64,000 bases of DNA. Source: Candidatus Methylomirabilales bacterium. Lineage in GTDB: Bacteria; Methylomirabilota; Methylomirabilia; Methylomirabilales; CSP1-5. Both the position numbers and the translations under genes were made by a program. The stretch spans positions 43,944 through 107,943 of the forward strand of contig JBHIAH010000004.1 of assembly GCA_046758505.1 (NCBI GenBank). Reading direction: 5' to 3'. This document shows, one piece after another, positions 51,281-64,000 of the stretch (its first letter is position 1; every line of letters begins with the position of its first letter). The notes below the pieces were generated by a model. That model had not been told where the DNA came from, searched no databases, and saw only the letters and a list, made by a program, of their open reading frames with translations.

Positions 51281-52450
51281 TTAGATGCGGTAGTGGTCGG
51301 TGTTGGCCCACTGCACGAGGATCTCCGCCACCTCGCGCCGGGAGAACTCGGACGGGGGAAGCTCCACCCGGTGCAGCATCTCGCGCACCTTGGTTCCCGA
51401 CAAGCTCACCCGCTCCTCGGGGCCGTGCGGGCAGGTCTTGGTCGTCGCCATGCCGTGGCAGCGCCGGCAATAGAAGGCATGATCGAAAAAGAGAGGCGTG
51501 ATGCCGAGTTCTGCGGCCGAAAATTCCTGAAAGATCGCGTGGGAGTCGAACGTCCCGTAATAGTTCCCCACCCCGGCATGATCCCGGCCGACAATGAAAT
51601 GGGTACACCCGTAGTTCTTGCGGATGAGGGCGTGAAAGATCGCCTCCCGCGGCCCCGCGTAGCGCATGGCCGCCGGGAGGACCGACAGGATCACCCGATC
51701 CTTCGGATAGTACCCATCCAACAGAACTTCATAGCAGCGCAGCCGCGTTTCCGGGGGGATGTCATCGGGCTTGGTCTCTCCCACCAACGGGTGGAGGAGG
51801 AGTCCATCCACCACCTCGAGGGCGCACTTCTGGATGTACTCGTGAGCCCGATGGACCGGGTTTCGGGTCTGAAAGCCCACCACCGTCCGCCACCCCCGAT
51901 CTGTAAAGGCCCGACGCGTCTCTCTGGGGGTGAGATGGTAGGGATCAAAGCCGGGATACTGGGGGCGCTCGAGGAGACGGACGGGGCCGGCCAAGAGCAC
52001 CTCTCCCTGCGCGTAGAGGGCGTGGACACCCGGGTGGGCCTCGTCGGTCGTCCGGTAGACCTCCGACGCCTCCCGCTTCTTATCATACGGGAACTTCTCG
52101 CGAAGCTCCAGGAGACCTCGGGGCTCCCCCTCCTCATCTACGAGGGCGAGCTCCGCCCCCACGGCAAGCAAAGCGGCCTGGCCCTTCCCCACCGCTAACG
52201 TGACGGGAATGGACCAGGGAAGGCCGTTCGCCAAACGCATCTCCGTCACCACCCGTTCGTAATCGGCCCGCCCCATGAACCCATCCAGGGGACTCAGGCC
52301 TCCGATCCCGATCAGGTCCAGGTCCGAGCGCTGCCGTAGATTCAGGTGGATGGACTTCAGGCCACGGGCCCGCCGCCGCGCCTCTGCCTGCTCGTCTGGC
52401 GGCACGAGCCGGTCGATCAGTCTCCCTCCGTGCGGCGCAATCGTGCTCAT
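51281..52450 (-). CDS. sat: Sulfate adenylyltransferase
   Basis: [37 protein letters not shown]. Confidence 0.97.
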
Positions 52451-52466
52451 GCGACCTCCAGCTCCC

Positions 52467-53219
52467 TCATGAACGAGACCGGCCTGTCTCCACGGGCGTG
52501 ACGTGCAGGCCGCACTCCTTGCTTTCGGGTGTCTCCCACCACCATCGCCCGGCCCGGATATCCTCTCCTGGCTTGATCGCCCGGGTACACGGGGCGCAAC
52601 CGATGCTGGGAAACCCTACATCATGGAGCGCGTTGTACGGAACGTCGTGGGTATGGATGTAGTCCCACACCTGCTCCACGGACCAGTCGACCAACGGGTT
52701 CACCTTGATGATTCCGCCATGACTCTGATCACATTCCACCTTATGCATCGCGGTTCGGGTGACCGCTTGCTCACGCCGGAGTCCGGTCACCCACGCATCG
52801 AGTCCCTCGAGCGCCCGGCCCAGGGGCTCGACCTTTCGGATCCCACAGCAAAACTTGCGCTCCTCCACACTCCGCCGAAAGGAGTAAAATCCCCTCTCCC
52901 GTTCCAGGGCCTCTACCGCTTCCCGGTCGGGAAAATAACTCTCGACGGAAATCCCGTATCGTTCCCGGATCCGCTCCATCACGGTGTAGGTTTCTTCGTG
53001 AAGGCGACCGGTGTCCAGCGTAAAGACCCGAACGTGGGGATTCATCTTCCAGGCGATGTCCAGGATGACCATGTCTTCCACCTGGAGGCTCGTGGCGAGG
53101 GCGATCCGGGGATGAAACCGATCCAGGCTCCACCGGAGTACCGCCTCGGCGTCCTGCTCCTCGAATCGAGCCGCCACGTCCTTGATCTCTGCTTCATCCA
53201 CCAGGTTTTTCTGTTCCAC
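52467..53219 (-). CDS. cysH: Assimilatory APS reductase (4Fe-4S CysH type)
   Basis: [37 protein letters not shown] after AAGGAGG. Confidence 0.94.
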
Positions 53220-53335
53220 GCCTGCCTCCTTTCCGATCCGCCGCTGTGCCGTCTCTCGACCTGCGCAACGCATCCCTTCCGGACATGGATGCATCCAGAA
53301 GGGCATACAATGGCGTACCCGTCTTCCTTCCTTCG

Positions 53336-54268
53336 TTACGGACGTTCCTCTGCCGCGGTCTCCCCGCGAATCCCCGCCACAACATTTTTCCGATCACCCG
53401 GAGGCCGGCCGGCGAGATACCCGACCGTGGCCCGCAGCATGGGCCCCAACTTGTACTCGTCCGGCATGACATCGACCGAGACTCCATTGTCTTCAATGGC
53501 CTGTCGGGTGGGGGGGCCCACTGCGACGACCACTACCGCCCCGTTCAGGGCTTGGCGTAACGCGTCCTCGAGCCCGTGGGCTTCCGCAAACCGGAAGAGG
53601 TTCTTGACCGACGGTGGGCTGGTGAATGTCATGACATGTATCGCCCCCCTCCCCACATCGTGAATCAGCTCGAGGATCCTGCGCTCCTCGGGAGGGAACG
53701 ACTTGAACCCCGCCGCCTCCAAAAGTTGCGCGCCCTCCTTCTTGAGGTCCAGCGCATAGGTGTACGCCATCGCCTCGAAGACGTCCGCTCCACCCTGCTC
53801 GAGGGTCGCCCGGAGCGTGGGGTGGGAGTCGCCATGCCAGAGAACGGTCACGTGTTTGCCGTGCAGGTCGAACCTGGCCATCTCGGCGGCGATCCCCTCC
53901 GACGTATTGTCGGATGGTACCAGGTTCACGCGTATTCCGTGCCGCTCCAACACCTTCTGTGGCTTTTGGCTTCTCGCGATCACATACGTGCGGTCTAAGA
54001 CGTCCACCACCTCCCGCTCCAACCCCAGTCGTTGGGCCGTCGCCATCAACCGAAAGACCCCCGGGCCCGTCAAGAAGACCGCATAGTCAACTGCTCGACC
54101 GACGATCCGGTGCACCAACCCTTCCATTTGAAGGTCCAGATCCTCCTGGATTGCAATGCCCACCGTGGGAGCCACATAGGGGACTCCCCCGAGCTTCGTC
54201 ACGAGCTGGGCGAGCTCGGACGCTCTTCGGCTGCCGGTAACCGCCACTGTCAGACCCTGAAGCTCCAT
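53336..54268 (-). CDS. hemD: Uroporphyrinogen-III synthase family protein
   Basis: VAVTGSRR, FLTGPG, FTSPPSV, AVGPPT; next to sulfite reductase. Confidence 0.85.
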   Translation of the reverse strand: MELQGLTVAVTGSRRASELAQLVTKLGGVPYVAPTVGIAIQEDLDLQMEGLVHRIVGRAVDYAVFLTGPGVFRLMATAQRLGLEREVVDVLDRTYVIARSQKPQKVLERHGIRVNLVPSDNTSEGIAAEMARFDLHGKHVTVLWHGDSHPTLRATLEQGGADVFEAMAYTYALDLKKEGAQLLEAAGFKSFPPEERRILELIHDVGRGAIHVMTFTSPPSVKNLFRFAEAHGLEDALRQALNGAVVVVAVGPPTRQAIEDNGVSVDVMPDEYKLGPMLRATVGYLAGRPPGDRKNVVAGIRGETAAEERP

Positions 54269-54306
54269 CCCACACCCTTGGCGTAGCCCCGACCGCGCTC
54301 TCCCCC

Positions 54307-56100
54307 TTACGCCGCGCACTCCCCAGGACCCGTCTTGAGCTCGAAGGCCTCTTCCGCCTCCCAATCCTGGAACCCGTCTGGGGCCTCTGCGTAAGTGGGG
54401 AGCTGGGTGAACTCGGCCATGATCTCCGCCACGCGATCCAGCCCGAGACGGTCCATGAAGGTCAGCAGGGCTTCCCCCTCTGTCCGATCCGCCTTAAAAA
54501 CCGTCAGGAGCGCGTCGATGGCCATCGGAATATTCTTTGCCGGAATCCGTAGCGTGGGCTTGCCGAACCGGGCGGTCCCATCATCCCAGGTTCCCCCCAG
54601 AAGCATTTGATAGGTCGGCACCTGGCGTCCCTCGAATTTTTTCGCCCCGCCGTAAAAGCCAATCGTGCCGAGATGGTGGTGGCCGCACGAGTTCGGGCAG
54701 CCCGAGATCTTGATCCGTCCCTTCACGTCCTCGGCCAGGTCGGGGTGCTTCTCCTGCACCATCCCCGCGATCGCGGTCGCCAACCCCCGGGAAGAGGTGA
54801 TGCCGAGCTGGCAGGTGTCTGCGCCGGGGCAGGCGGTGACGTCGACGAGCCGCTCGGCCCCGCGCCGAGCCAGGTCGATGCGGCGGAGCACCCGGTAGAG
54901 GGCCCCCAGGGCCCCTTCCGGGACCCACCGGAGAAGAAAGTTCTGCTGATTTGTCGTCCTGACGGTGCCGTCTCCAAACTCCCGGGCACAGAACCCCAGG
55001 AGTCGAAGCTGGAGTGCGGTGATATCCCCGAGTTCCAAACAGACCGTGACCATGACGTACCCCGGCTGCTTCTGGGGCCGGACGTTGCTCCGTCGCCAGC
55101 GCTCATAGGCGGCGTCATTGGGATCGGGGAGCGCCGCTGGCGCCGGCCTCCGGGGTGGAGGCACCTCTTGCCGGACGATGATCGGAGGAAACTTGCCGCC
55201 CATGGTCAGCCGTAGGCCTGTCCGTTCTTTGAAGACCAGCTTTTGGAATTTCTCTACGCCCAGCTCCTGGATGACGAACTTCATCCGCGCCCGATTGCGA
55301 TTCTCCCGGTTGCCGAAGCGATCAAAGACCCTGACAATGGCCGCCACGGTGACCAGCAGGTCGTCCGCCGGGGTGAACTCTTCGAGGACGTCGGCATGGT
55401 GAGGCACGGGCCCGAGCCCTCCGGCCACAATCAGCCGGAAGCCCCGGTGGCTCATCCCGTTCTCCTGATGTAGGAGCGCCCGCGCCCCAATGTCGTGAAT
55501 CGCCGTAATTCCCTCGTCGTCCGGGCATCCCGAAAAGGCGATTTTGAACTTGCGCGGAAGATTCTGGTTCATCGGGTTCCGCAGGAGAAAGCGCGCCACC
55601 GCCTCGGCGTACGGCGTAACGTCGAAGACCTCCCGCGGGCAGACGCCCGAGCAGGCCCCGGCAGTGACATTGCGCACGGTATTTCCGCACGCTTCTCGCG
55701 TCGTCAACCCGACCTTTTCTAAATGCCGCATAAACTCGGTTGCCTCGGTCAGCTTGACGAAGTGTAGTTGGATGTTCTGGCGGGTCGTGACATGGCCGAG
55801 GCCGCCCGGGGTCCGCTTGGCCAGGTCCGCCAAGACCTCCAGCTGGTCAGTCGTCAGCCCGCCCCAGGGGATCTTGATTCGAAACATCTGTTCTCCCTGT
55901 TGGCGCTGACCGTAGACGCCGTTCTGAAGGCGAAAGCGTTTGAACTCGTCCTCCGACAACTGCTTTCGCCAAAACCGCTGGACAAACTCGTCAAAGGTAT
56001 CGATCTCCTCCTGCCGGGCATAGGAGGGACGGACGGCTAGGGGCTTATCCTCTATGGCGATGGTCGCCTTGTTGGCATCCCGATCCTGTACCTGCTGCAT
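54307..56100 (-). CDS. sir: Ferredoxin-dependent sulfite/nitrite reductase (siroheme)
   Basis: GVYGQRQ, HVTTRQNIQ, LPRKFKIAFSGC, CPGADTCQ...ISGCPNSCG. Confidence 0.92.
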   Translation of the reverse strand: MQQVQDRDANKATIAIEDKPLAVRPSYARQEEIDTFDEFVQRFWRKQLSEDEFKRFRLQNGVYGQRQQGEQMFRIKIPWGGLTTDQLEVLADLAKRTPGGLGHVTTRQNIQLHFVKLTEATEFMRHLEKVGLTTREACGNTVRNVTAGACSGVCPREVFDVTPYAEAVARFLLRNPMNQNLPRKFKIAFSGCPDDEGITAIHDIGARALLHQENGMSHRGFRLIVAGGLGPVPHHADVLEEFTPADDLLVTVAAIVRVFDRFGNRENRNRARMKFVIQELGVEKFQKLVFKERTGLRLTMGGKFPPIIVRQEVPPPRRPAPAALPDPNDAAYERWRRSNVRPQKQPGYVMVTVCLELGDITALQLRLLGFCAREFGDGTVRTTNQQNFLLRWVPEGALGALYRVLRRIDLARRGAERLVDVTACPGADTCQLGITSSRGLATAIAGMVQEKHPDLAEDVKGRIKISGCPNSCGHHHLGTIGFYGGAKKFEGRQVPTYQMLLGGTWDDGTARFGKPTLRIPAKNIPMAIDALLTVFKADRTEGEALLTFMDRLGLDRVAEIMAEFTQLPTYAEAPDGFQDWEAEEAFELKTGPGECAA

Positions 56101-56163
56101 GACCTCTCCTCCCTTCCGGACGTTCGCATGTCCGCCTCGGGGTGGCGATCAGGTGAACAGCGT

Positions 56164-56997
56164 TCACCATGTCGTTCCGACAACCGTGACGGCGCCTACC
56201 AGGCTTACCACGACGCCGATGAATTGTCGCATCCCGGCCGCCGAAAACCGATTTGCCCTCCGAACCCCAAGATATACTCCCACGCCCCCTGCCAGCAGCA
56301 GCGGAAGAAAAACTCCCACGGGGAACGTCCCCGTCTGAAGGGTATATGAGCCGGTCGCGGCTGACGCCACCAGCGATCGGGCCAGCAGTGAAGAGCCCAC
56401 GACGGTGTGGGGCGGAATCCCTGTCCACATCATCAAGACGACACCGATCGTTCCCCACCCCGCCCCGAATGCCCCCGCACAGAATCCGGCAACCGCTCCG
56501 ATGCCGAAAAGGGTTTGGCGCCTGTCACGCCATTTCACGGTTTCAAAGCCGTTTTGCGACCCGTTTCCATTTTTCCTGAGCAGCGTCAGAACGCCGATGG
56601 TCACCGTAATCACACCAATCAGCACCCGCAGGGTCTGCGCCGGCAATGCCGGACTCAGAAAACTCCCCAGGAAGGCTCCTCCCACCCCTCCGAGAACCAG
56701 CGGGACGAGGGCGGCGACGCGCGATCGGTCATAGCGCCAATGGGTCAGACCCCCGAACAGGCTCAGCACGATGGAAGCTGCCAGAGACGAGTTGATCGCG
56801 ACTAACGGCTCGATCCCGATCACAATCAGCAACGGGACGCTCAACGCCCCCCAGGCCGCGGCAGAGATCCCCGTCACCCATCCCGACACGATTCCGACGA
56901 AGACAATTGCAGACATTGAAGCCGTCACCACATGTATTCTTCCCAAACGCGAGGTCAACATCATCCGGGGCGAGCCCGGTCCGTGGGGATCGGTCAC
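56164..56997 (-). CDS. TauE/SafE family membrane transporter
   Basis: About 8 TM helices, G.VSG...G and AG.FGAGWG repeat motifs. Confidence 0.8.
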   Translation of the reverse strand: MTDPHGPGSPRMMLTSRLGRIHVVTASMSAIVFVGIVSGWVTGISAAAWGALSVPLLIVIGIEPLVAINSSLAASIVLSLFGGLTHWRYDRSRVAALVPLVLGGVGGAFLGSFLSPALPAQTLRVLIGVITVTIGVLTLLRKNGNGSQNGFETVKWRDRRQTLFGIGAVAGFCAGAFGAGWGTIGVVLMMWTGIPPHTVVGSSLLARSLVASAATGSYTLQTGTFPVGVFLPLLLAGGVGVYLGVRRANRFSAAGMRQFIGVVVSLVGAVTVVGTTW

Positions 56998-57665
56998 CCC
57001 GTGGGCAAGAAAACCTCCTGCGGGCGGCGACCCCGCAGCTTGTCGATCAGCGCCCGCAGGGCCTCCTCAAGGCTCTCCCCGTACACCGTCAGTTCGGGCC
57101 GCGGTACTTGCTGGGGGTGATCGGGACGAGCCATGCACCGCTTCCCCGGTTCCTGGACCTCCCCCAGGGTTTCTTCCACCAGGAGGTCCAGGGTACTCCA
57201 GGCACACCCGACGGCCCTGAGATATCGGAACCGATGGGTCCGAATGAGACGCTCGCTTGCGGTGAGGAATGCCCCCGGAGACGTCCCGGCCGCTGTGGGC
57301 ACCTCCTCGAGGCCCTGCTCACCCTCTGGAGGAGAAGACTCCAGTGGGTATTCCTGCGTCTCCCACCGCTGAATTCCCCCTTCCAGGTTGTACACCTCGC
57401 CAAGCCCGATCGCCGCCGCCGCTTCGCAGGCGACGGCGCTCCTGATCCCTTCTGAGCAGATGAAGAGCACGGCCCCTTCTTTCAGGAACTCCCGCGGGGT
57501 GCGAAGCAGCGTCCCGAGAGGGACGAGGATCGAGCCCGGGATCCGCACCTGGGCGTACTCGTTGGGCTCCCGGACGTCAACAACCTGGGCCCCCCTCTCC
57601 ATCAAGGCCTTTGCCTCTGCAGGCTCAATCCGAGAAAAGGGTTCATCCGCCAGGGGCTCCGTCAT
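56994..57665 (-). CDS. Single-domain rhodanese with an unknown C-terminal domain
   Basis: VDVREPNEY..RIPG, ICSEGIRS, NLEGGI..W, then about 100 unassigned residues. Confidence 0.82.
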   Translation of the reverse strand: MTEPLADEPFSRIEPAEAKALMERGAQVVDVREPNEYAQVRIPGSILVPLGTLLRTPREFLKEGAVLFICSEGIRSAVACEAAAAIGLGEVYNLEGGIQRWETQEYPLESSPPEGEQGLEEVPTAAGTSPGAFLTASERLIRTHRFRYLRAVGCAWSTLDLLVEETLGEVQEPGKRCMARPDHPQQVPRPELTVYGESLEEALRALIDKLRGRRPQEVFLPTG

Positions 57666-57677
57666 GCGAGACTCTCC

Positions 57678-58520
57678 TTATTTTTCGATCGGAACATGCA
57701 CCAGACTGCCATACTCAGTCCACGAGCCGTCGTAGTTGAGCACCGTGGAATAGCCCAGGAGGTACTTCAGCACGAACCAGGTGTGGGAGGAGCGCTCGCC
57801 GATCCGGCAATAGGCGATGATCTCCTTGTTCGGGGTGATCCCCTTGCCCTGGTAGAGTTGCGTGAGGTCCTCCGCGCTCTTGAAGGTCCCGTCCTCCTTG
57901 ACTGCCTGGCTCCAAGGGATATTCGCCGCCCCCGGAATATGCCCGCCGCGCTGGGCCCCTTCCTGGGGCAGGTTTTCGGGGGCTACAATTTCGCCGGAGA
58001 ATTCTTTCGGCGAGCGGACATCCACGAGGGCCAGCCCCGCCTTGCCAACCGCGCCGATGACTTCGTCCCGCACCACCCGGATGCTCTTATCGGACTTCTG
58101 CGCCTTATAGGTGGTGGCCGGATAGTTCGGCACCTCTTTGGTCATAGGTCGCCCCTCGGCGATCCATTTGACCCGCCCTCCGTTCATGACCCGGGCGTCG
58201 GCATGACCGTAGTACTTGAGCAACCAGAACGCATAGGTGGCAAACCAGTTATTGTTGTCACCGTACAAGATCACGGTCGTGTCGTTCTGAATCCCCGACC
58301 GACTGAGCAGCTTCTCCAGGGTCTGGCGGTGAACGATGTCGCGTTCCAGCCGCTCCTCCAGATCGCTTTTCCAGTTCCAGCCAATGGCCCCGGGAACATG
58401 CCCTTCGCCATAGGCGGCCGTGTCCACGTCCACCTCCACCAGCCGGATCTTGGGGTCCTTCAGGTGATCCGCGACCCACTGGGTCTCCACCAACACCTCG
58501 CCATGTGCGTAGCCTGCCAT
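57678..58520 (-). CDS. Two-domain thiosulfate sulfurtransferase (actinobacterial CysA-like rhodanese)
   Basis: GHVPGA, LYGDNNNWFA, AYCRIGERSSHTWF, NYDGSWTEYG. Confidence 0.95.
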   Translation of the reverse strand: MAGYAHGEVLVETQWVADHLKDPKIRLVEVDVDTAAYGEGHVPGAIGWNWKSDLEERLERDIVHRQTLEKLLSRSGIQNDTTVILYGDNNNWFATYAFWLLKYYGHADARVMNGGRVKWIAEGRPMTKEVPNYPATTYKAQKSDKSIRVVRDEVIGAVGKAGLALVDVRSPKEFSGEIVAPENLPQEGAQRGGHIPGAANIPWSQAVKEDGTFKSAEDLTQLYQGKGITPNKEIIAYCRIGERSSHTWFVLKYLLGYSTVLNYDGSWTEYGSLVHVPIEK

Positions 58521-58624: not shown

Positions 58625-59023
58625 CTATGCGACCATCACCTCCTCCTCGCTGATCTGGCCATTCGTAATTCGAAAGGCGCGAATCACCGGTGCGTCTCGC
58701 TTCTCCAGGGAAACGATGAAGTAGAGGGCCTCGGGATAGAACGCGAGCTCCACGTCGGTCTTCGAGGGATAGGCCTCGCTGTGGGTGTGGGAGTGGTAGA
58801 TCCCAATGAGATCCCACCCCTTCTGATCCAGCTCCCGCATGACCCGGAGTTGATCCCTCGGATCGAGGTAGTAGCGATACGGGCTCTTTTCGGCACTGTC
58901 GCAGCGATAGAGCTGCAGAACCACCCCCCCGGTGCCAGCCAGGAGGCCACAACACTCGTTCGGGGCCTCTGTCCGCGCGTGATCGATCATCGCCGCCGCG
59001 AACTGCTTTTCCAGCTTGAACAT
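58625..59023 (-). CDS. mec: JAMM/Mov34 (M67) metallopeptidase, Mec-like CysO-cysteine peptidase
   Basis: PNECCGLL and YHSHTHSEAYPSKTD (HxHx7Sx2D). Confidence 0.92.
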   Translation of the reverse strand: MFKLEKQFAAAMIDHARTEAPNECCGLLAGTGGVVLQLYRCDSAEKSPYRYYLDPRDQLRVMRELDQKGWDLIGIYHSHTHSEAYPSKTDVELAFYPEALYFIVSLEKRDAPVIRAFRITNGQISEEEVMVA

Positions 59024-59059: not shown

Positions 59060-60274
59060 TTACCACCAGATGTGACTATAGACATCCTCGCCGAGATCAG
59101 GCAGCTCCTTGGCCCACACGCCCAGGCTGATATACTTCCACCCCCCGTCGGCGAGCAGGCAGACGATCTTCCCCCGCTCCATCTTGTGGGCCGTCCGAAT
59201 CGCGCAGTGGAGCACGGCGCCCGACGAGACCCCCGCAAAGATCCCCTCCTTGATCGTCAGATCCCGGGTCAAGGCAAAGGCGCAGCGCGAATCGACAATG
59301 ATCTTTCCGTCCAGGAGGCTCAGATCCAGGATGGGGGGGATGAACCCTTCCTCCAAACTGCGGAGCCCCTGAACGAGATCGCCCGGATGGGGCTCTACGG
59401 CGATCACCTGCGTCTTCGGGTTCGCCTCCTTGAGCCGCCGCCCCACCCCCATGAGGGTCCCCCCGGTCCCCAGCCCGGCCACGAACAGATCCACGTCCGG
59501 CACCGCTTCGAGGATCTCCGTGCCCGTGGTCTCGTAATGCGCGCGGGGATTCGACTCGTTGCCGTACTGGTACGGCATGTACCAATCGGGGTTCTCGGCG
59601 GCGAGCCGCTTGGCCAGATCGATGGCCCCGTTCGTCCCCCGGCGCGCATCGGAGTATACGATTTCCGCACCGTACAGCTCCAGCAATTGCCGCCGCTCGA
59701 CGGTAATGTTCTCGGGGACGACCACCTTCACCCTGTACCCCTTCCGCCGACCGATCAAGGCTAGGGAAATCCCGGTATTGCCGCTGGTGGGCTCGAGGAT
59801 CGTCTTTCCAGGGGTCAGCGCTCCTCGCTCCTCCGCCTCCTCGATCATATACTTGGCGATCCGGTCCTTCAGGCTCCCCGTCGGATTGTAGAATTCGAGC
59901 TTGCAGAAGATTCGAACCGACGGCTTGGGGCTGACCCGGGGTACCTCCACCAGGGGGGTGTGTCCGATGGCGTCCACGATGTCAGCGTATGTGCCGGGGT
60001 AGCCTCCCCCCGCGACCGCTGGGAGGATGGAGATGGTATCCCCCTCCCGCACCTCCGTATCCAGGGACTCGAGGAACCGGATATCCTCATCGTTCCGATA
60101 CACGTTCACGAACCGGTGAAGCTCCTTGCCATCCAGCAGCCGATCCCACAGCCCCGGATAGGCCTTGTCCAGGCTCTCCAGGACCTCACGGACCGTCCTC
60201 CCCTCGCCGGTGATCGTCTTTGCGCCGCCGGTGTGCTTTCGAAAGATCTGGGGAACGTGCACCTGAACCTTCAT
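59060..60274 (-). CDS. CysO-like sulfur carrier fused to CysM-type cysteine synthase
   Basis: Residues 1-90 MoaD-like ending LPAVAGG; continuous into IGHTPLV, NPTGSLKDR, EPTSGNTG, GTGGT, DGGWKY. Confidence 0.92.
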   Translation of the reverse strand: MKVQVHVPQIFRKHTGGAKTITGEGRTVREVLESLDKAYPGLWDRLLDGKELHRFVNVYRNDEDIRFLESLDTEVREGDTISILPAVAGGGYPGTYADIVDAIGHTPLVEVPRVSPKPSVRIFCKLEFYNPTGSLKDRIAKYMIEEAEERGALTPGKTILEPTSGNTGISLALIGRRKGYRVKVVVPENITVERRQLLELYGAEIVYSDARRGTNGAIDLAKRLAAENPDWYMPYQYGNESNPRAHYETTGTEILEAVPDVDLFVAGLGTGGTLMGVGRRLKEANPKTQVIAVEPHPGDLVQGLRSLEEGFIPPILDLSLLDGKIIVDSRCAFALTRDLTIKEGIFAGVSSGAVLHCAIRTAHKMERGKIVCLLADGGWKYISLGVWAKELPDLGEDVYSHIWW

Positions 60275-60346: not shown

Positions 60347-60634
60347 TCACCGGGGCTTAGAGACACCCCCACCCTTTCGGACCACAATGGCCCATTCGCG
60401 ATCGGTGAACTGACGCACCTCCAGAACCTCGTTTCCCTCACTGGCCAGGCTCCGCGGCACGTCGGCCGCAGACCGGGGATTGTCCACGATGACCCGGAGG
60501 ACTTCGCCCGCCTCCAGTTGTTCCAAGGCCAGTTTGGACTTCACAAACGTGTACGGGCAGACCTCGCCCCGGAGGTTCAGTTCCTCATCGACCGTGTCTT
60601 TCTCGGACACGAAAGATCCCTCGCTTTCTCTCAT
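60347..60634 (-). CDS. TusA/YeeD family sulfur carrier
   Basis: LNLRGEVCPYT..K...L..L..GE.L.V..D. Confidence 0.9.
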   Translation of the reverse strand: MRESEGSFVSEKDTVDEELNLRGEVCPYTFVKSKLALEQLEAGEVLRVIVDNPRSAADVPRSLASEGNEVLEVRQFTDREWAIVVRKGGGVSKPR

Positions 60635-60714: not shown

Positions 60715-60978
60715 TCATGCCGAACCGCCCTTTTCAATCTCGATCTCCCACAGCGCATCCCCCACCTTGTCAACCCGAATGACCCTGTGCCCCTCGTCGG
60801 CCGCCCAGCGTGGGATATTCTCCGCAGAAAGGGGATAATCGGACACCACGATCAGGATGTCCCCCGGCTCGAGCTTCTTTATCTCCCGCTGGGCCATGAC
60901 GAGGGGATAGGGGCAGATCTCCCCACGCGTATCGAGCCGATGAACCTTCCGCTCTTGGGCCTGCCCCGGCACCGTCAT
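60715..60978 (-). CDS. TusA/YeeD family sulfur carrier
   Basis: LDTRGEICPYP; L.PGD.L...SD.P.S..NIP.W. Confidence 0.92.
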   Translation of the reverse strand: MTVPGQAQERKVHRLDTRGEICPYPLVMAQREIKKLEPGDILIVVSDYPLSAENIPRWAADEGHRVIRVDKVGDALWEIEIEKGGSA

Positions 60979-61943
60979 TACTTCTCCAGCGGAAGCTCGG
61001 GCCGATTCCCCCAGTCGATCCAGGAGCCATCGTAGTTACGGACCTTCTCGTACCCCAGCAGTCGGGCAACAAAGTAGTCGTGCGCCGCCCGGACCCCGGT
61101 CCGGCAGTAGGTCACAATCTCACGATCTCTTGTGGCGCCCGCCGCCTCAAAGAGCTTTTGGAGCTCTGCTGCGCTCTTGAAGGTCCGATCTCCAGTGTTA
61201 ATGGTATCGACCCAGTTGATCAGCACGGCCCCGGGGATGTGGCCCCCCCGCCTGATGTCGGGATCCTTCACCTTTCCCGGGTGAGTCCGCTTTCCTTCAT
61301 ATTCCATCGGAGTCCGCGCATCCACCACGCGGACCCCGGGATTCCTGAGGTTGTCCTTGATCCACTCCGCGGTGGCGATCAGCGTGGGATTCGGGCTGGC
61401 GACAAATTTTTTCGGTGCGACCGTGGTTTTCTCCGCCGTCAGGGGCCGGCCCTCTTTCATCCACCGCGTGAGGCCCCCGTTGAGCACGGCCACGTTCTTA
61501 TGCCCGAAGAACTCAAGGACAAAGAAAAGGCGCGCCGCCCAAAGCCCGCCGGTGTCGTCATAGGCAACGACCCGCGTATCGTTGTCAATCCCGAGCTTGC
61601 TGAAGAGGGCCTCCGCTTTGGCCCGATCCATGGGAAGTCCCTTCCGGTTGCTCGCGAGATCGTCGATCTCCGTCCAGTCGACGTAGACCGCTCCCGGGAT
61701 ATGCGCCTTGGCGTACTCCGCCTTCCCGGCAGGCCCTTTCGCCCGGAGATCGACCAGGCGAATGGAGGGATCGCCCAGGTGGTCTGCAATCTCCTGCGTA
61801 TCTATCAACAGCTGTGCGTTCGGATATCCCGCTTTTTTCGCCTGTTGGCCCCAACACTGTGCCCATGCCAGCCCGCCAATGGTCAAAAGCAGGACCAGCG
61901 TACCGACGACAATAGCGATCCTGCTGTACCGGATGCTACGCAT
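60978..61943 (-). CDS. Exported two-domain rhodanese
   Basis: Signal peptide ending AWA, AHIPGA, GHIPGA, TYCRTGVRA, NYDGSW; start at ATG 61943. Confidence 0.9.
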   Translation of the reverse strand: MRSIRYSRIAIVVGTLVLLLTIGGLAWAQCWGQQAKKAGYPNAQLLIDTQEIADHLGDPSIRLVDLRAKGPAGKAEYAKAHIPGAVYVDWTEIDDLASNRKGLPMDRAKAEALFSKLGIDNDTRVVAYDDTGGLWAARLFFVLEFFGHKNVAVLNGGLTRWMKEGRPLTAEKTTVAPKKFVASPNPTLIATAEWIKDNLRNPGVRVVDARTPMEYEGKRTHPGKVKDPDIRRGGHIPGAVLINWVDTINTGDRTFKSAAELQKLFEAAGATRDREIVTYCRTGVRAAHDYFVARLLGYEKVRNYDGSWIDWGNRPELPLEK

Positions 61944-62940
61944 GTCGAGCTCTCCTCTCGAAGACCATCTTCCCGAATAACACATACGCCCCGATCCATA
62001 CCCCAGCGACGATGCCTGCCGTGGCCGTCAAGCTGCTCAAGGCGAGCATGGGAACACCCGTGAGGCTGTGGCCGATGTTACATCCGCCGGCGATGCCCGC
62101 ACCGACCCCCATCAGCGCTCCCCCCCCAAACGCCTGGAGCAGCCGGACGGGGCTAGGGGCGCGCCAGGCAAATTCCTTGTGGCCGATGGCACCCAGAAAA
62201 GCCCCCAGGGGAATCCCGAGCCACATGAAGCTTGACCAATTCAACCACCGGATCTCTCCCGTGAAGAGGTATCGGAACAGGGTGGCAATGGGCTCCGTGA
62301 TCGACAACCCGTACTGCCGACCGGTGCTCGCCGATAGGACCCACGCCACGACCCCGATCAGGCCGATGATCCCGCCCGCCACGGGCCACTTCCACCCCCG
62401 CGCGTATGTGTCGATTGCACCTCGCGCGCACCACCAGGTTCCCGCCACGACCAGGACCCCGATGACAACCCAATGATTGATGCCCAAGAGCGCGCTCAGT
62501 GTCGGTTCCCTGCCGACCGGGACGATCGTCGCCTGGAGCGCCCGCTGGATCGGCCGGAGCACGCCCAAATTCGTCATGGTAACCCCGATCCCGAATCCGA
62601 TAAAAGCGAGGATTGATGCAACCATGCCCTCCCCCGACCGGTAGGAGATACCGCTCGCTCACCCGCCTGCGTTCGCCATGCCGAACCCGAAGATGAGGCC
62701 GCCTACCACGGTGGCCTGCCAGAAGAAGGGAGCCATGTTCCGCATAATCATACCGAGGTCGGCAAGTAGGTTGAGCCCGACGAGTTGGACCAGGACCGCC
62801 ACCACGTACGCCCGCAGCAGCGTGAAGTCCCGCGCCACGAGCACATCGCGAAAGGCGGTGTTCATGCAGAACCGCCCGCGCTGCAGGGCGTACCCGAACG
62901 CAAGGCCCACTGGAAAACCGAGGAGCACTGCCTTAAGCAT
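61936..62940 (-). CDS. yeeE: YeeE/YedE (TsuA) thiosulfate transporter, predicted selenoprotein (UGA at codon 94)
   Basis: Track ORFs 62659-62940 and 61936-62625 are in one frame; read-through gives GMANAGG-U-ASGISYRSGEG; also RGRFC and AGGCNIG; 334 aa. Confidence 0.88.
62629..62647 (-). promoter_or_regulatory. Bacterial SECIS-like hairpin
   Basis: CUCCU-A-CC[GGUC]GG-GGGAG starting 11 nt after the in-frame UGA at 62661-62659. Confidence 0.7.
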
Positions 62941-62955
62941 CCGCGGCGCCCCGTA

Positions 62956-63216
62956 TCACCAACAGGTTACTCGATCGCACTGAAATACCAGTTCCACGAC
63001 CCCCCGGTAATCGACCGCCTTGAGGTGCCCCCCCGTTACTCCTCGGGCTTCGAGGTCTGCCGCGGTCGCATAAAGGGGGAGCGCGGTCTCCCGGGAAGAG
63101 AGAACGCCATCCTGCCAGAGCAGGACCGACACCTCATGTCCCCCTTTGGCCTGCGCCTCGCCCACCTCCCAGGCCCACGTCTCTCTTGGATCCTTGATGA
63201 TATGCAGATACCTCAT
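62956..63216 (-). CDS. DsrH/TusB-like sulfur relay protein
   Basis: LLWQDGV, DLEARG, VDY..VVEL......TCW; start at ATG 63216. Confidence 0.82.
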   Translation of the reverse strand: MRYLHIIKDPRETWAWEVGEAQAKGGHEVSVLLWQDGVLSSRETALPLYATAADLEARGVTGGHLKAVDYRGVVELVFQCDRVTCW

Positions 63217-63219
63217 CGC

Positions 63220-63312
63220 GTCCGATGTCCAAGGTCCGAGGTCCGATATCCGAAGTAAGACGGCCGACCGACACCCCCTTACAACGAACATAGAACGTCG
63301 AACTTCGAACTC
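63220..63312. repeat. Inverted 7-bp tandem repeat element
   Basis: GTCCGAT-GTCCAAG-GTCCGAG-GTCCGAT-ATCCGAA facing GAACATA-GAACGTC-GAACTTC-GAACTC. Confidence 0.7.
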
Positions 63313-63660
63313 CTAAAACGGGACCACGACGTCAGACTCCTCCAGAAGCTTCAGGACCTCCGCCCGGTCCAGGACCTCCACCGCCGGGTGCAAGGAGAAC
63401 CCACCCAGTGCCGCATGCGATCGGCGGTCCGCCACCACGCGGTGCCCCAGCGCCTTCAGGGCCTCGAGGTGCTTTGCCACCCCCGGTTGTCCGATCCGCT
63501 CCGCCCTGAGCCCCGTCGCCCCGGCAACGACGCCATGCTCCACCAGGAGAGCGGTCACCTGATGGGGAGCCAGCGTGTACCCCACGGCAACCCGTAGCGC
63601 CTCGCTCGCCCGTATGGTATTCAGCGGCAGATGGCGAATCAGCACGGTGATCCGTTTCAT
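63313..63660 (-). CDS. DsrF/TusC-like protein
   Basis: R..P.....SEALR.A.G, D.V.PF C-terminus; between DsrE-like and DsrH-like genes. Confidence 0.78.
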   Translation of the reverse strand: MKRITVLIRHLPLNTIRASEALRVAVGYTLAPHQVTALLVEHGVVAGATGLRAERIGQPGVAKHLEALKALGHRVVADRRSHAALGGFSLHPAVEVLDRAEVLKLLEESDVVVPF

Positions 63661-63666
63661 GATCCC

Positions 63667-63999
63667 TCACCCGAAGACCAGAAAACGATCCGCCCGGTGA
63701 AGGATCTGGGCGTGATCGTATTGACTCCCAAAGGTGACACCCGCGATGGCGGTCTCTTTGGTCACGCCCCGGGGATCGCAGTTGGACCCGCAGAGGGTAA
63801 TGGTCGCCCCCGCCTCTTGGAGGGCGGCGAACTCCCCGGCCACCGGGTTGTCCCCGACATCGAGGATGTTGTACACCCCGTCATCCATCAGAAACAGCTC
63901 CACTTGGTGTCCCAGCCCCAAGGCGGCCCGGGCAACCCGAAGGGCGCTGACCGAGTTTTGGTGTTCCGGCGAGGTCGTGAGCAACATCCCCAGTCTCAT
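63667..63999 (-). CDS. DsrE/TusD-like sulfur relay protein
   Basis: TTSP, VELFLMDDGVY, ITLCGSNC..RG, GSQY, DRFLVFG. Confidence 0.88.
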   Translation of the reverse strand: MRLGMLLTTSPEHQNSVSALRVARAALGLGHQVELFLMDDGVYNILDVGDNPVAGEFAALQEAGATITLCGSNCDPRGVTKETAIAGVTFGSQYDHAQILHRADRFLVFG

Positions 64000-64000
64000 G

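Follow-up and report, generated by a model that had tools for sequence, protein, structure and literature searches.

A predicted full-length YeeE-family selenoprotein in a sulfur-assimilation operon of a Methylomirabilales bacterium

An interrupted yeeE frame among sulfur-assimilation genes

The stretch of DNA that we analysed, hereafter the window, comprises 64,000 nucleotides of a contig (JBHIAH010000004.1) from a Candidatus Methylomirabilales bacterium. On its reverse strand, positions 62940 to 61936 form a single frame of 334 codons whose sole internal stop is a TGA at codon 94 (62659..62661), with cysteines at codons 25, 171, and 287. Translation table 11 breaks this frame into ORFs of 93 and 229 amino acids, both present in the protein collection at 100% identity (P0215 and P0003), and 36 of 50 short database matches stop exactly ahead of the TGA site. 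A first-pass annotation of the sequence had taken the two apparent ORFs for one frame with a single TGA at 62661-62659 and had expected pipelines to split the gene; both expectations proved correct.

The read-through product is covered by PF04143 from model position 1 to 310 (E 6e-77; 259.7 bits against a cut-off of 27) and aligns with the Spirochaeta thermophila YeeE structure 6LEO (E 3e-51, 37% identity). In this alignment codon 94 falls on Cys91, the central essential cysteine, while C25 (62866..62868) corresponds to the cytoplasm-side Cys22 and C287 (62080..62082) to the periplasm-side Cys293, which is the mapping of C25, U94, and C287 that had been proposed from the letters of the sequence. 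An AlphaFold model built from a 73-sequence alignment, with Cys placed at position 94, has a pLDDT of 92 and a TM-score of 0.90 to 6LEO, and equivalents of R208, R31, R101, and E104 of TsuA/YeeE are present in the protein.

The protein had also been named a YeeE/TsuA thiosulfate transporter. This identity is supported in part, by the PF04143 match, by the YeeE fold, and by the two features that mark TsuA, namely the three pore positions and an adjoining YeeD/TusA gene; against it, the protein scores below the NCBIfam TsuA cut-offs (252.9 against 400 for NF052577; 192 against 645 for NF041049), as do the Cys-form orthologues P0008 and P0012.

All genes of the window described here lie on the reverse strand. 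Upstream of yeeE, profile matches identify DsrE-like (63667-63999), DsrE/F-like (63313-63642), and DsrH-like (62956-63216) genes; the latter two are separated in part by a stretch of 37 nt (63220-63256), possibly a short repeat, to which each of the four sequencing runs has matches in contigs unrelated to this locus. Downstream, a tandem-domain rhodanese (60978..61943; CRTG active-site loop and, by eye, a signal-peptide-like N-terminus) begins within the end of yeeE, with an overlap of 8 nt, and tightly packed genes follow on the same strand: a TusA/YeeD-like sulfur carrier (60715..60978; PF01206, best NCBIfam match TsuB/YeeD, below cut-off), a second TusA-like carrier (60347..60634; PF01206), a ThiS-fold, CysO-like carrier fused to a CysM-like cysteine synthase (59060..60274; PF02597 and PF00291; 340 bits for TIGR01136 against a cut-off of 344), and a Mec-like JAB-domain protease (58625..59023; PF14464). 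Several relatives match only the synthase part of the fusion at the same place.

A further block (51281..58520) comprises, by profile match, two rhodaneses (57678-58520 and 56994-57665), TauE (56164-56997), sulfite reductase (54307-56100), HemD (53336-54364), PAPS/APS reductase (52467-53306), and ATP sulfurylase (51281-52450). The rhodanese at 56994-57665 carries a C-terminal extra domain of about 100 amino acids with a CxxS...C pattern. Promoter and terminator scans gave matches at chance level. In the source genome, which is 96.8% complete, yeeE is the sole PF04143 gene, Sbp/CysP and SulP were not found, and genes for TauE and two PiT-family transporters are present. Very probably, the yeeE product imports sulfur for cysteine synthesis and serves as the entry point of an operon with that function, whose genes are presumably co-transcribed. 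The operon includes a sulfate-activation route, and the first-pass suggestion that sulfur uptake would depend on selenium is plausible for the YeeE route only.

It is improbable that this gene encodes a YedE-kind importer of selenium, as selenosulfate or selenide, and not of sulfur. YedE relatives are tied to selenium transport in published accounts (PMC9312934, PMC11582611), and an ExtH-like match, though a weak one (75 bits against a cut-off of 200), is seen in the adjacent rhodanese. However, the window protein lies far under the selenium-linked YedE/FdhT cut-offs (99.1 of 350 bits for NF033796; 39 of 200 for TIGR04112), obtains its best NCBIfam score among the TsuA and selenium-YedE models from TsuA, and is encoded in a sulfur-assimilation operon on a contig other than that of selA, selB, selD, and tRNA-Sec. 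In addition, an importer of selenium whose own synthesis requires the element would be expected to fail when the need is greatest.

Predicted selenocysteine at codon 94

The source genome encodes SelA, SelB, and SelD, all scoring over cut-off, and two programs detect its tRNA-Sec, so that selA, selB, selC, and selD are all accounted for; selD is itself interrupted by an in-frame TGA. SelA was detected in 36 of 41 genomes searched, and the two TGA-form genomes without a SelA match are 87% and 70% complete.

The genome is also rich in selenoprotein candidates, with at least 16 in-frame-TGA genes that have Pfam support (L121-L136, L008); L131 and L137 were left out of 18 initial candidates because they have no Pfam match. 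They include deiodinase-like, GrdB-like, several AhpC/TlpA, CMD, glutaredoxin, two DsbA, DUF3179, VKOR-thioredoxin, UGSC, and SelD proteins. A simple hairpin rule is satisfied by 11 of the 16, which were partly picked by that rule, compared to 635 of 5000 random TGAs; selD fails it.

Codons 98-104 of yeeE (62629..62648) fold into a SECIS-like hairpin whose GGUC loop begins 19 nt past the UGA; in the E. coli fdhF hairpin, folded for comparison, the GGUC loop begins at 18 nt. In bacterial SECIS elements the apical loop is described as containing G and as lying at a distance of 16-37 nt from the UGA (PMC10778597), and the yeeE hairpin lies within this range. Across the genome, 212 of 82,505 six-frame TGA triplets (0.26%) satisfy the same hairpin rule as yeeE, a rule set post hoc with the site already seen. 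An Rfam scan of 61500-64000 gave no SECIS family match, and one lncRNA match by chance.

Because the hairpin overlaps conserved codons, we chose synonymous re-coding as the control, in a custom shuffle test (p<0.05) distinct from bSECISearch. Of the 21 TGA forms, 20 have a hairpin more stable than its shuffles, as does one of the nine Cys forms, these loci being related and not independent; the mean energy of the hairpin is -8.6 kcal/mol in TGA forms versus -4.4 in Cys forms. The first run, on fewer loci, gave 13 of 16 TGA forms, 0 of 4 Cys forms, and 0 of 53 outgroup loci. Among 138 segments of the gene, codons 100-105 rank top for synonymous conservation. These comparisons indicate that the SECIS hairpin is under selection in TGA forms only, and the GGUC hairpin seen in the first-pass annotation has held up under folding, comparison with fdhF, and shuffling.

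Alignment of full-length orthologue loci of the order (n=30) revealed TGA at the codon-94 column in 21 and TGC or TGT in nine. Two of the TGA loci come from unpublished genomes (G007, G021), and omitting both leaves 19 of 28 with the same conclusions. The opposite pattern, in which all relatives carry Cys and lack a conserved hairpin, is not what these loci present. All nine Cys-form loci fall within one genus, and Sec is retained by every one of the 13 full-length loci that lie outside family f7. The same column is Cys in 53 of 53 more distant outgroup loci, and in the best 30 full-length PF04143 loci from 151 Desulfuromonadales-type-order genomes Cys occupies each of the three pore columns. 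P0002, at 81% the closest database relative, carries Cys at the codon-94 column, and its 90% cluster includes a 93-aa member, P0209, that stops short of the site.

Trees, the first of which (98 rows) was a quick tree, nest the window clade among Cys forms and leave the deep forks unresolved. The simplest reading of this distribution is a Cys-to-Sec gain at the base of the clade followed by reversions, with three changes inside the clade. Sec is dispensable, because nine orthologues use Cys and the Cys-form genomes checked (four of four) retain SelA. The idea that Cys forms occur where Sec machinery has been lost was rejected because of the SelA retained in those four genomes.

That the interruption is a pseudogene or a sequencing error is effectively refuted. 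Logan contigs from four of four runs span the site with no alternative letter at the TGA, although these are contigs and not raw reads, and they come from one study that is possibly the source of this DNA; against an artefact stand the recurrence of TGA at this column in 21 genomes whose frames have no other interruption, the selected hairpin, and the full Sec machinery. Positions 61936-62940 almost certainly encode one YeeE-fold selenoprotein with Sec at the middle pore cysteine, and we predict with very high confidence, from comparative sequence evidence, that selenocysteine is incorporated at codon 94.

It is quite improbable that the UGA acts mainly as a selenium sensor, such that scarcity of selenium would cause a stop at codon 94 and, through coupling or polarity, lower expression of the downstream sulfur-assimilation genes. 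The 8-nt overlap and close-packed, one-strand genes would suit such an arrangement. However, Sec falls exactly on the essential residue, the spacing from yeeE to the next gene varies among relatives, and an ATG in frame 12 codons 3' of the TGA could permit re-initiation.

Predicted selenocysteine at other pore positions and the adjoining rhodanese

TGA also occurs in other YeeE subfamilies. In one full-length subfamily the first pore cysteine is replaced by TGA (GRF-U-M) in 35 loci (among L189, L190, and L224-L259), and the third by Asp; SelA is present in the genomes of L189 and L190 (G202 and G211). By a rough count of start patterns, about 66 of 87 database homologues of this subfamily start at a Met directly past the site, and five have Cys. 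Its hairpin has a nearer, less canonical loop and beats shuffles in 10 of 35 loci, and its gene neighbours are not conserved.

Two Nitrospirota loci (L086 and L104, in G041 and G042) encode full-length YeeE proteins in which TGA coincides with the third pore cysteine and is accompanied by a hairpin of 8 bp. In the sister loci L088 and L099 this position is Cys and the 8-bp hairpin is absent, and SelA is present in all four genomes. A second central-Sec clade, Rokubacteria-type and long-branched (L191-L196, with Cys form L208), has very stable hairpins (-14 to -18 kcal/mol). An independent origin of the two central-Sec clades found no support, as an AU test leaves a single origin unrejected (p 0.18). 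YeeE is also encoded as split two-gene pairs (L042, L045, L206, L207), of which L042, L045, and L206 have TGA at a pore cysteine in both halves.

Split forms, then, carry TGA in one or both halves, and third-cysteine TGA is found in 15 half-size loci. Every checked genome with TGA at such another position or in such another clade has SelA or SelB over cut-off; G362 has SelB and no SelA match. Thus TGA, read here as putative Sec, recurs at each of the three pore cysteines in separate lineages, a hint that the role of these residues is to react with the cargo and not just to hold it. In the stretches examined beside the other Sec-bearing subfamilies, no rhodanese or TusA match was found.

Within the orthologue set, the downstream neighbour is visible at 30 loci (it is not in 3 of 33): 19 have Sec with rhodanese, nine have Cys without rhodanese, two have Sec without rhodanese, and none has Cys with rhodanese. 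The 11 rhodanese-less loci form one clade (support 100/99) that includes all nine Cys forms. An independent-pairs test for co-evolution of Sec and rhodanese shows nothing, the association being one event in one clade. This arrangement hints at a link between Sec and rhodanese, in which a single loss of the rhodanese may have been followed by Sec-to-Cys reversions.

A possible covalent sulfur relay, and related systems

We consider the most likely mechanism, with a probability of roughly one half, to be a covalent relay of sulfane sulfur into the TusA/CysO-CysM cysteine-synthesis operon. SelB would bind the hairpin just 3' of the UGA, which would be read as selenocysteine to yield a 334-aa membrane protein with a Cys287-Sec94-Cys25 path spanning the membrane. 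Outside the membrane, the secreted rhodanese would remove sulfane sulfur from thiosulfate or polysulfide; the sulfur would then traverse the pore in the form of a persulfide or selenosulfide, covalent or transient, with Sec94 as the more reactive nucleophile, and be handed to TusA/YeeD and from there to the CysO-CysM system. Because Cys forms exist, Sec would be an improvement and not a requirement.

Several observations argue for such a relay. A sulfurtransferase with a signal-peptide-like start adjoins yeeE. At neutral pH a selenol exists largely in its ionised form, which makes it a poor hydrogen-bond donor. Its lower pKa is documented (PMC11431864), Cys-to-Sec changes are reported to occur mostly at catalytic redox-active cysteines (PMC1794560), and in purified YeeE about half of the molecules are described as having a Cys22-Cys91 disulfide, with Cys-to-Ser mutants being inactive (PMC7449682). 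Other observations count against it. The structural papers favour an S-H-S hydrogen-bond relay of intact thiosulfate to YeeD (PMC7449682, PMC11073785), and the pore cysteines are given as about 7-9 Å apart, a distance at which direct hand-over of sulfur is questionable (PMC11582611). The evidently working Cys forms (nine orthologues) also weigh against the relay, as do the two Sec loci without rhodanese and the rhodanese-less state of the other Sec subfamilies.

The most substantial alternative, which we regard as the less likely of the two, is an ordinary TsuA-like channel that passes thiosulfate by hydrogen bonding. Sec94 would then be a near-neutral change in a selenoprotein-rich lineage, in which a SECIS element chanced to fit the conserved SYRSGEG codons. 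The shared fold with 6LEO, the YeeD-like partners beside yeeE, the alternation of Cys and Sec among close relatives (even within the 90% cluster of P0002 and P0209), and the abundance of in-frame-TGA candidates in the genome are all compatible with such a channel. Against it stand the retention of Sec in every full-length locus outside family f7 despite its cost, the recurrence of Sec at all three pore positions, and the unsuitability of an ionised selenol as a substitute for a thiol hydrogen-bond donor.

A broader form of the covalent reading can be offered tentatively, at somewhat less than even odds: the YeeE-family 'channels' may be covalent sulfur-relay proteins, represented here by a membrane-spanning seleno-sulfurtransferase whose central Sec would take sulfane sulfur from rhodanese and pass it to TusA, and not by a hydrogen-bond thiosulfate channel. 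For the way in which YeeE, TsuA, and SoxT proteins move sulfur across the membrane, the structure papers propose a hydrogen-bond relay. With a natural Sec at the essential centre, close Cys relatives as controls, and other lineages marking the other two cysteines, covalent and non-covalent transport could be told apart directly. Databases store the Sec-yeeE genes as fragments (93 and 229 aa here, about 295 aa in the first-cysteine subfamily), and annotations therefore misrepresent the capacity of NC10-type bacteria to take up sulfur.

The novelty implied by the first-pass annotation was overstated. Two reviews already include YeeE/YedE (PF04143, motif GUxSG, WP_012471001.1) among the predicted selenoprotein families (PMC13188914, PMC9312934), and the Peng 2016 supplement lists five organisms with a YeeE/YedE selenoprotein; the main text of Zhang and Gladyshev 2008, which reviews cite for the family, does not mention YeeE/YedE. 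The catalogued form differs, however. In the deep-Sep supplement (PMC12013277), the representative WP_012471001.1 and two examples are half-size, PmpA-like proteins of 170-180 aa with a G-U-PSGHGLSG motif. Using a profile of the window protein's family on 20 fetched loci and nine examined earlier, we mapped this motif to residue 287 of the window protein, the third cysteine, and not to residue 94, in every genomic locus with TGA that was tested (12 of 12), in agreement with the reported correspondence of the PmpA cysteine to Cys293 (PMC11582611). The likeness of the catalogued GUxSG to the G-U-ASG of the window protein is coincidental, because in the latter, a full-length protein, Sec occupies the central column. 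In the literature searched we found no full-length central-Sec YeeE, although such entries may exist in BSepDB and current RefSeq. The family is thus known as a selenoprotein family, and the full-length, central-Sec position and architecture are apparently new.

The window protein can be placed among four known systems. With the catalogued Sec-YeeE/YedE proteins it shares PF04143, the replacement of a pore cysteine by Sec, and a status as prediction only; those proteins are half-size with Sec at the third column (WP_012471001.1 being compared by motif and length only), whereas the window protein is full-length with a central Sec. With TsuA/YeeE of S. thermophila and E. coli and their partner TsuB/YeeD (6LEO, 8J4C; PMC7449682, PMC11073785) it shares the fold, the three-residue pore path, and adjoining TusA-like genes, but it has Sec in place of Cys91, and its operon adds a secreted rhodanese, a CysO-CysM fusion, and genes of DsrEFH type. 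In Hyphomicrobium denitrificans, SoxT1A/B (PMC11582611) are likewise YeeE-family importers, proposed to hand sulfur from a periplasmic carrier to cytoplasmic rhodanese and TusA; SoxT serves sulfur oxidation and signalling, whereas the window operon is assimilatory and its pore contains the predicted Sec. Finally, the selenium-linked YedE/FdhT proteins (NF033796, TIGR04112) belong to the same superfamily and have a link to selenium in common with the window protein, but for them selenium is the proposed cargo, whereas the window protein is predicted to contain it as one of its own residues.
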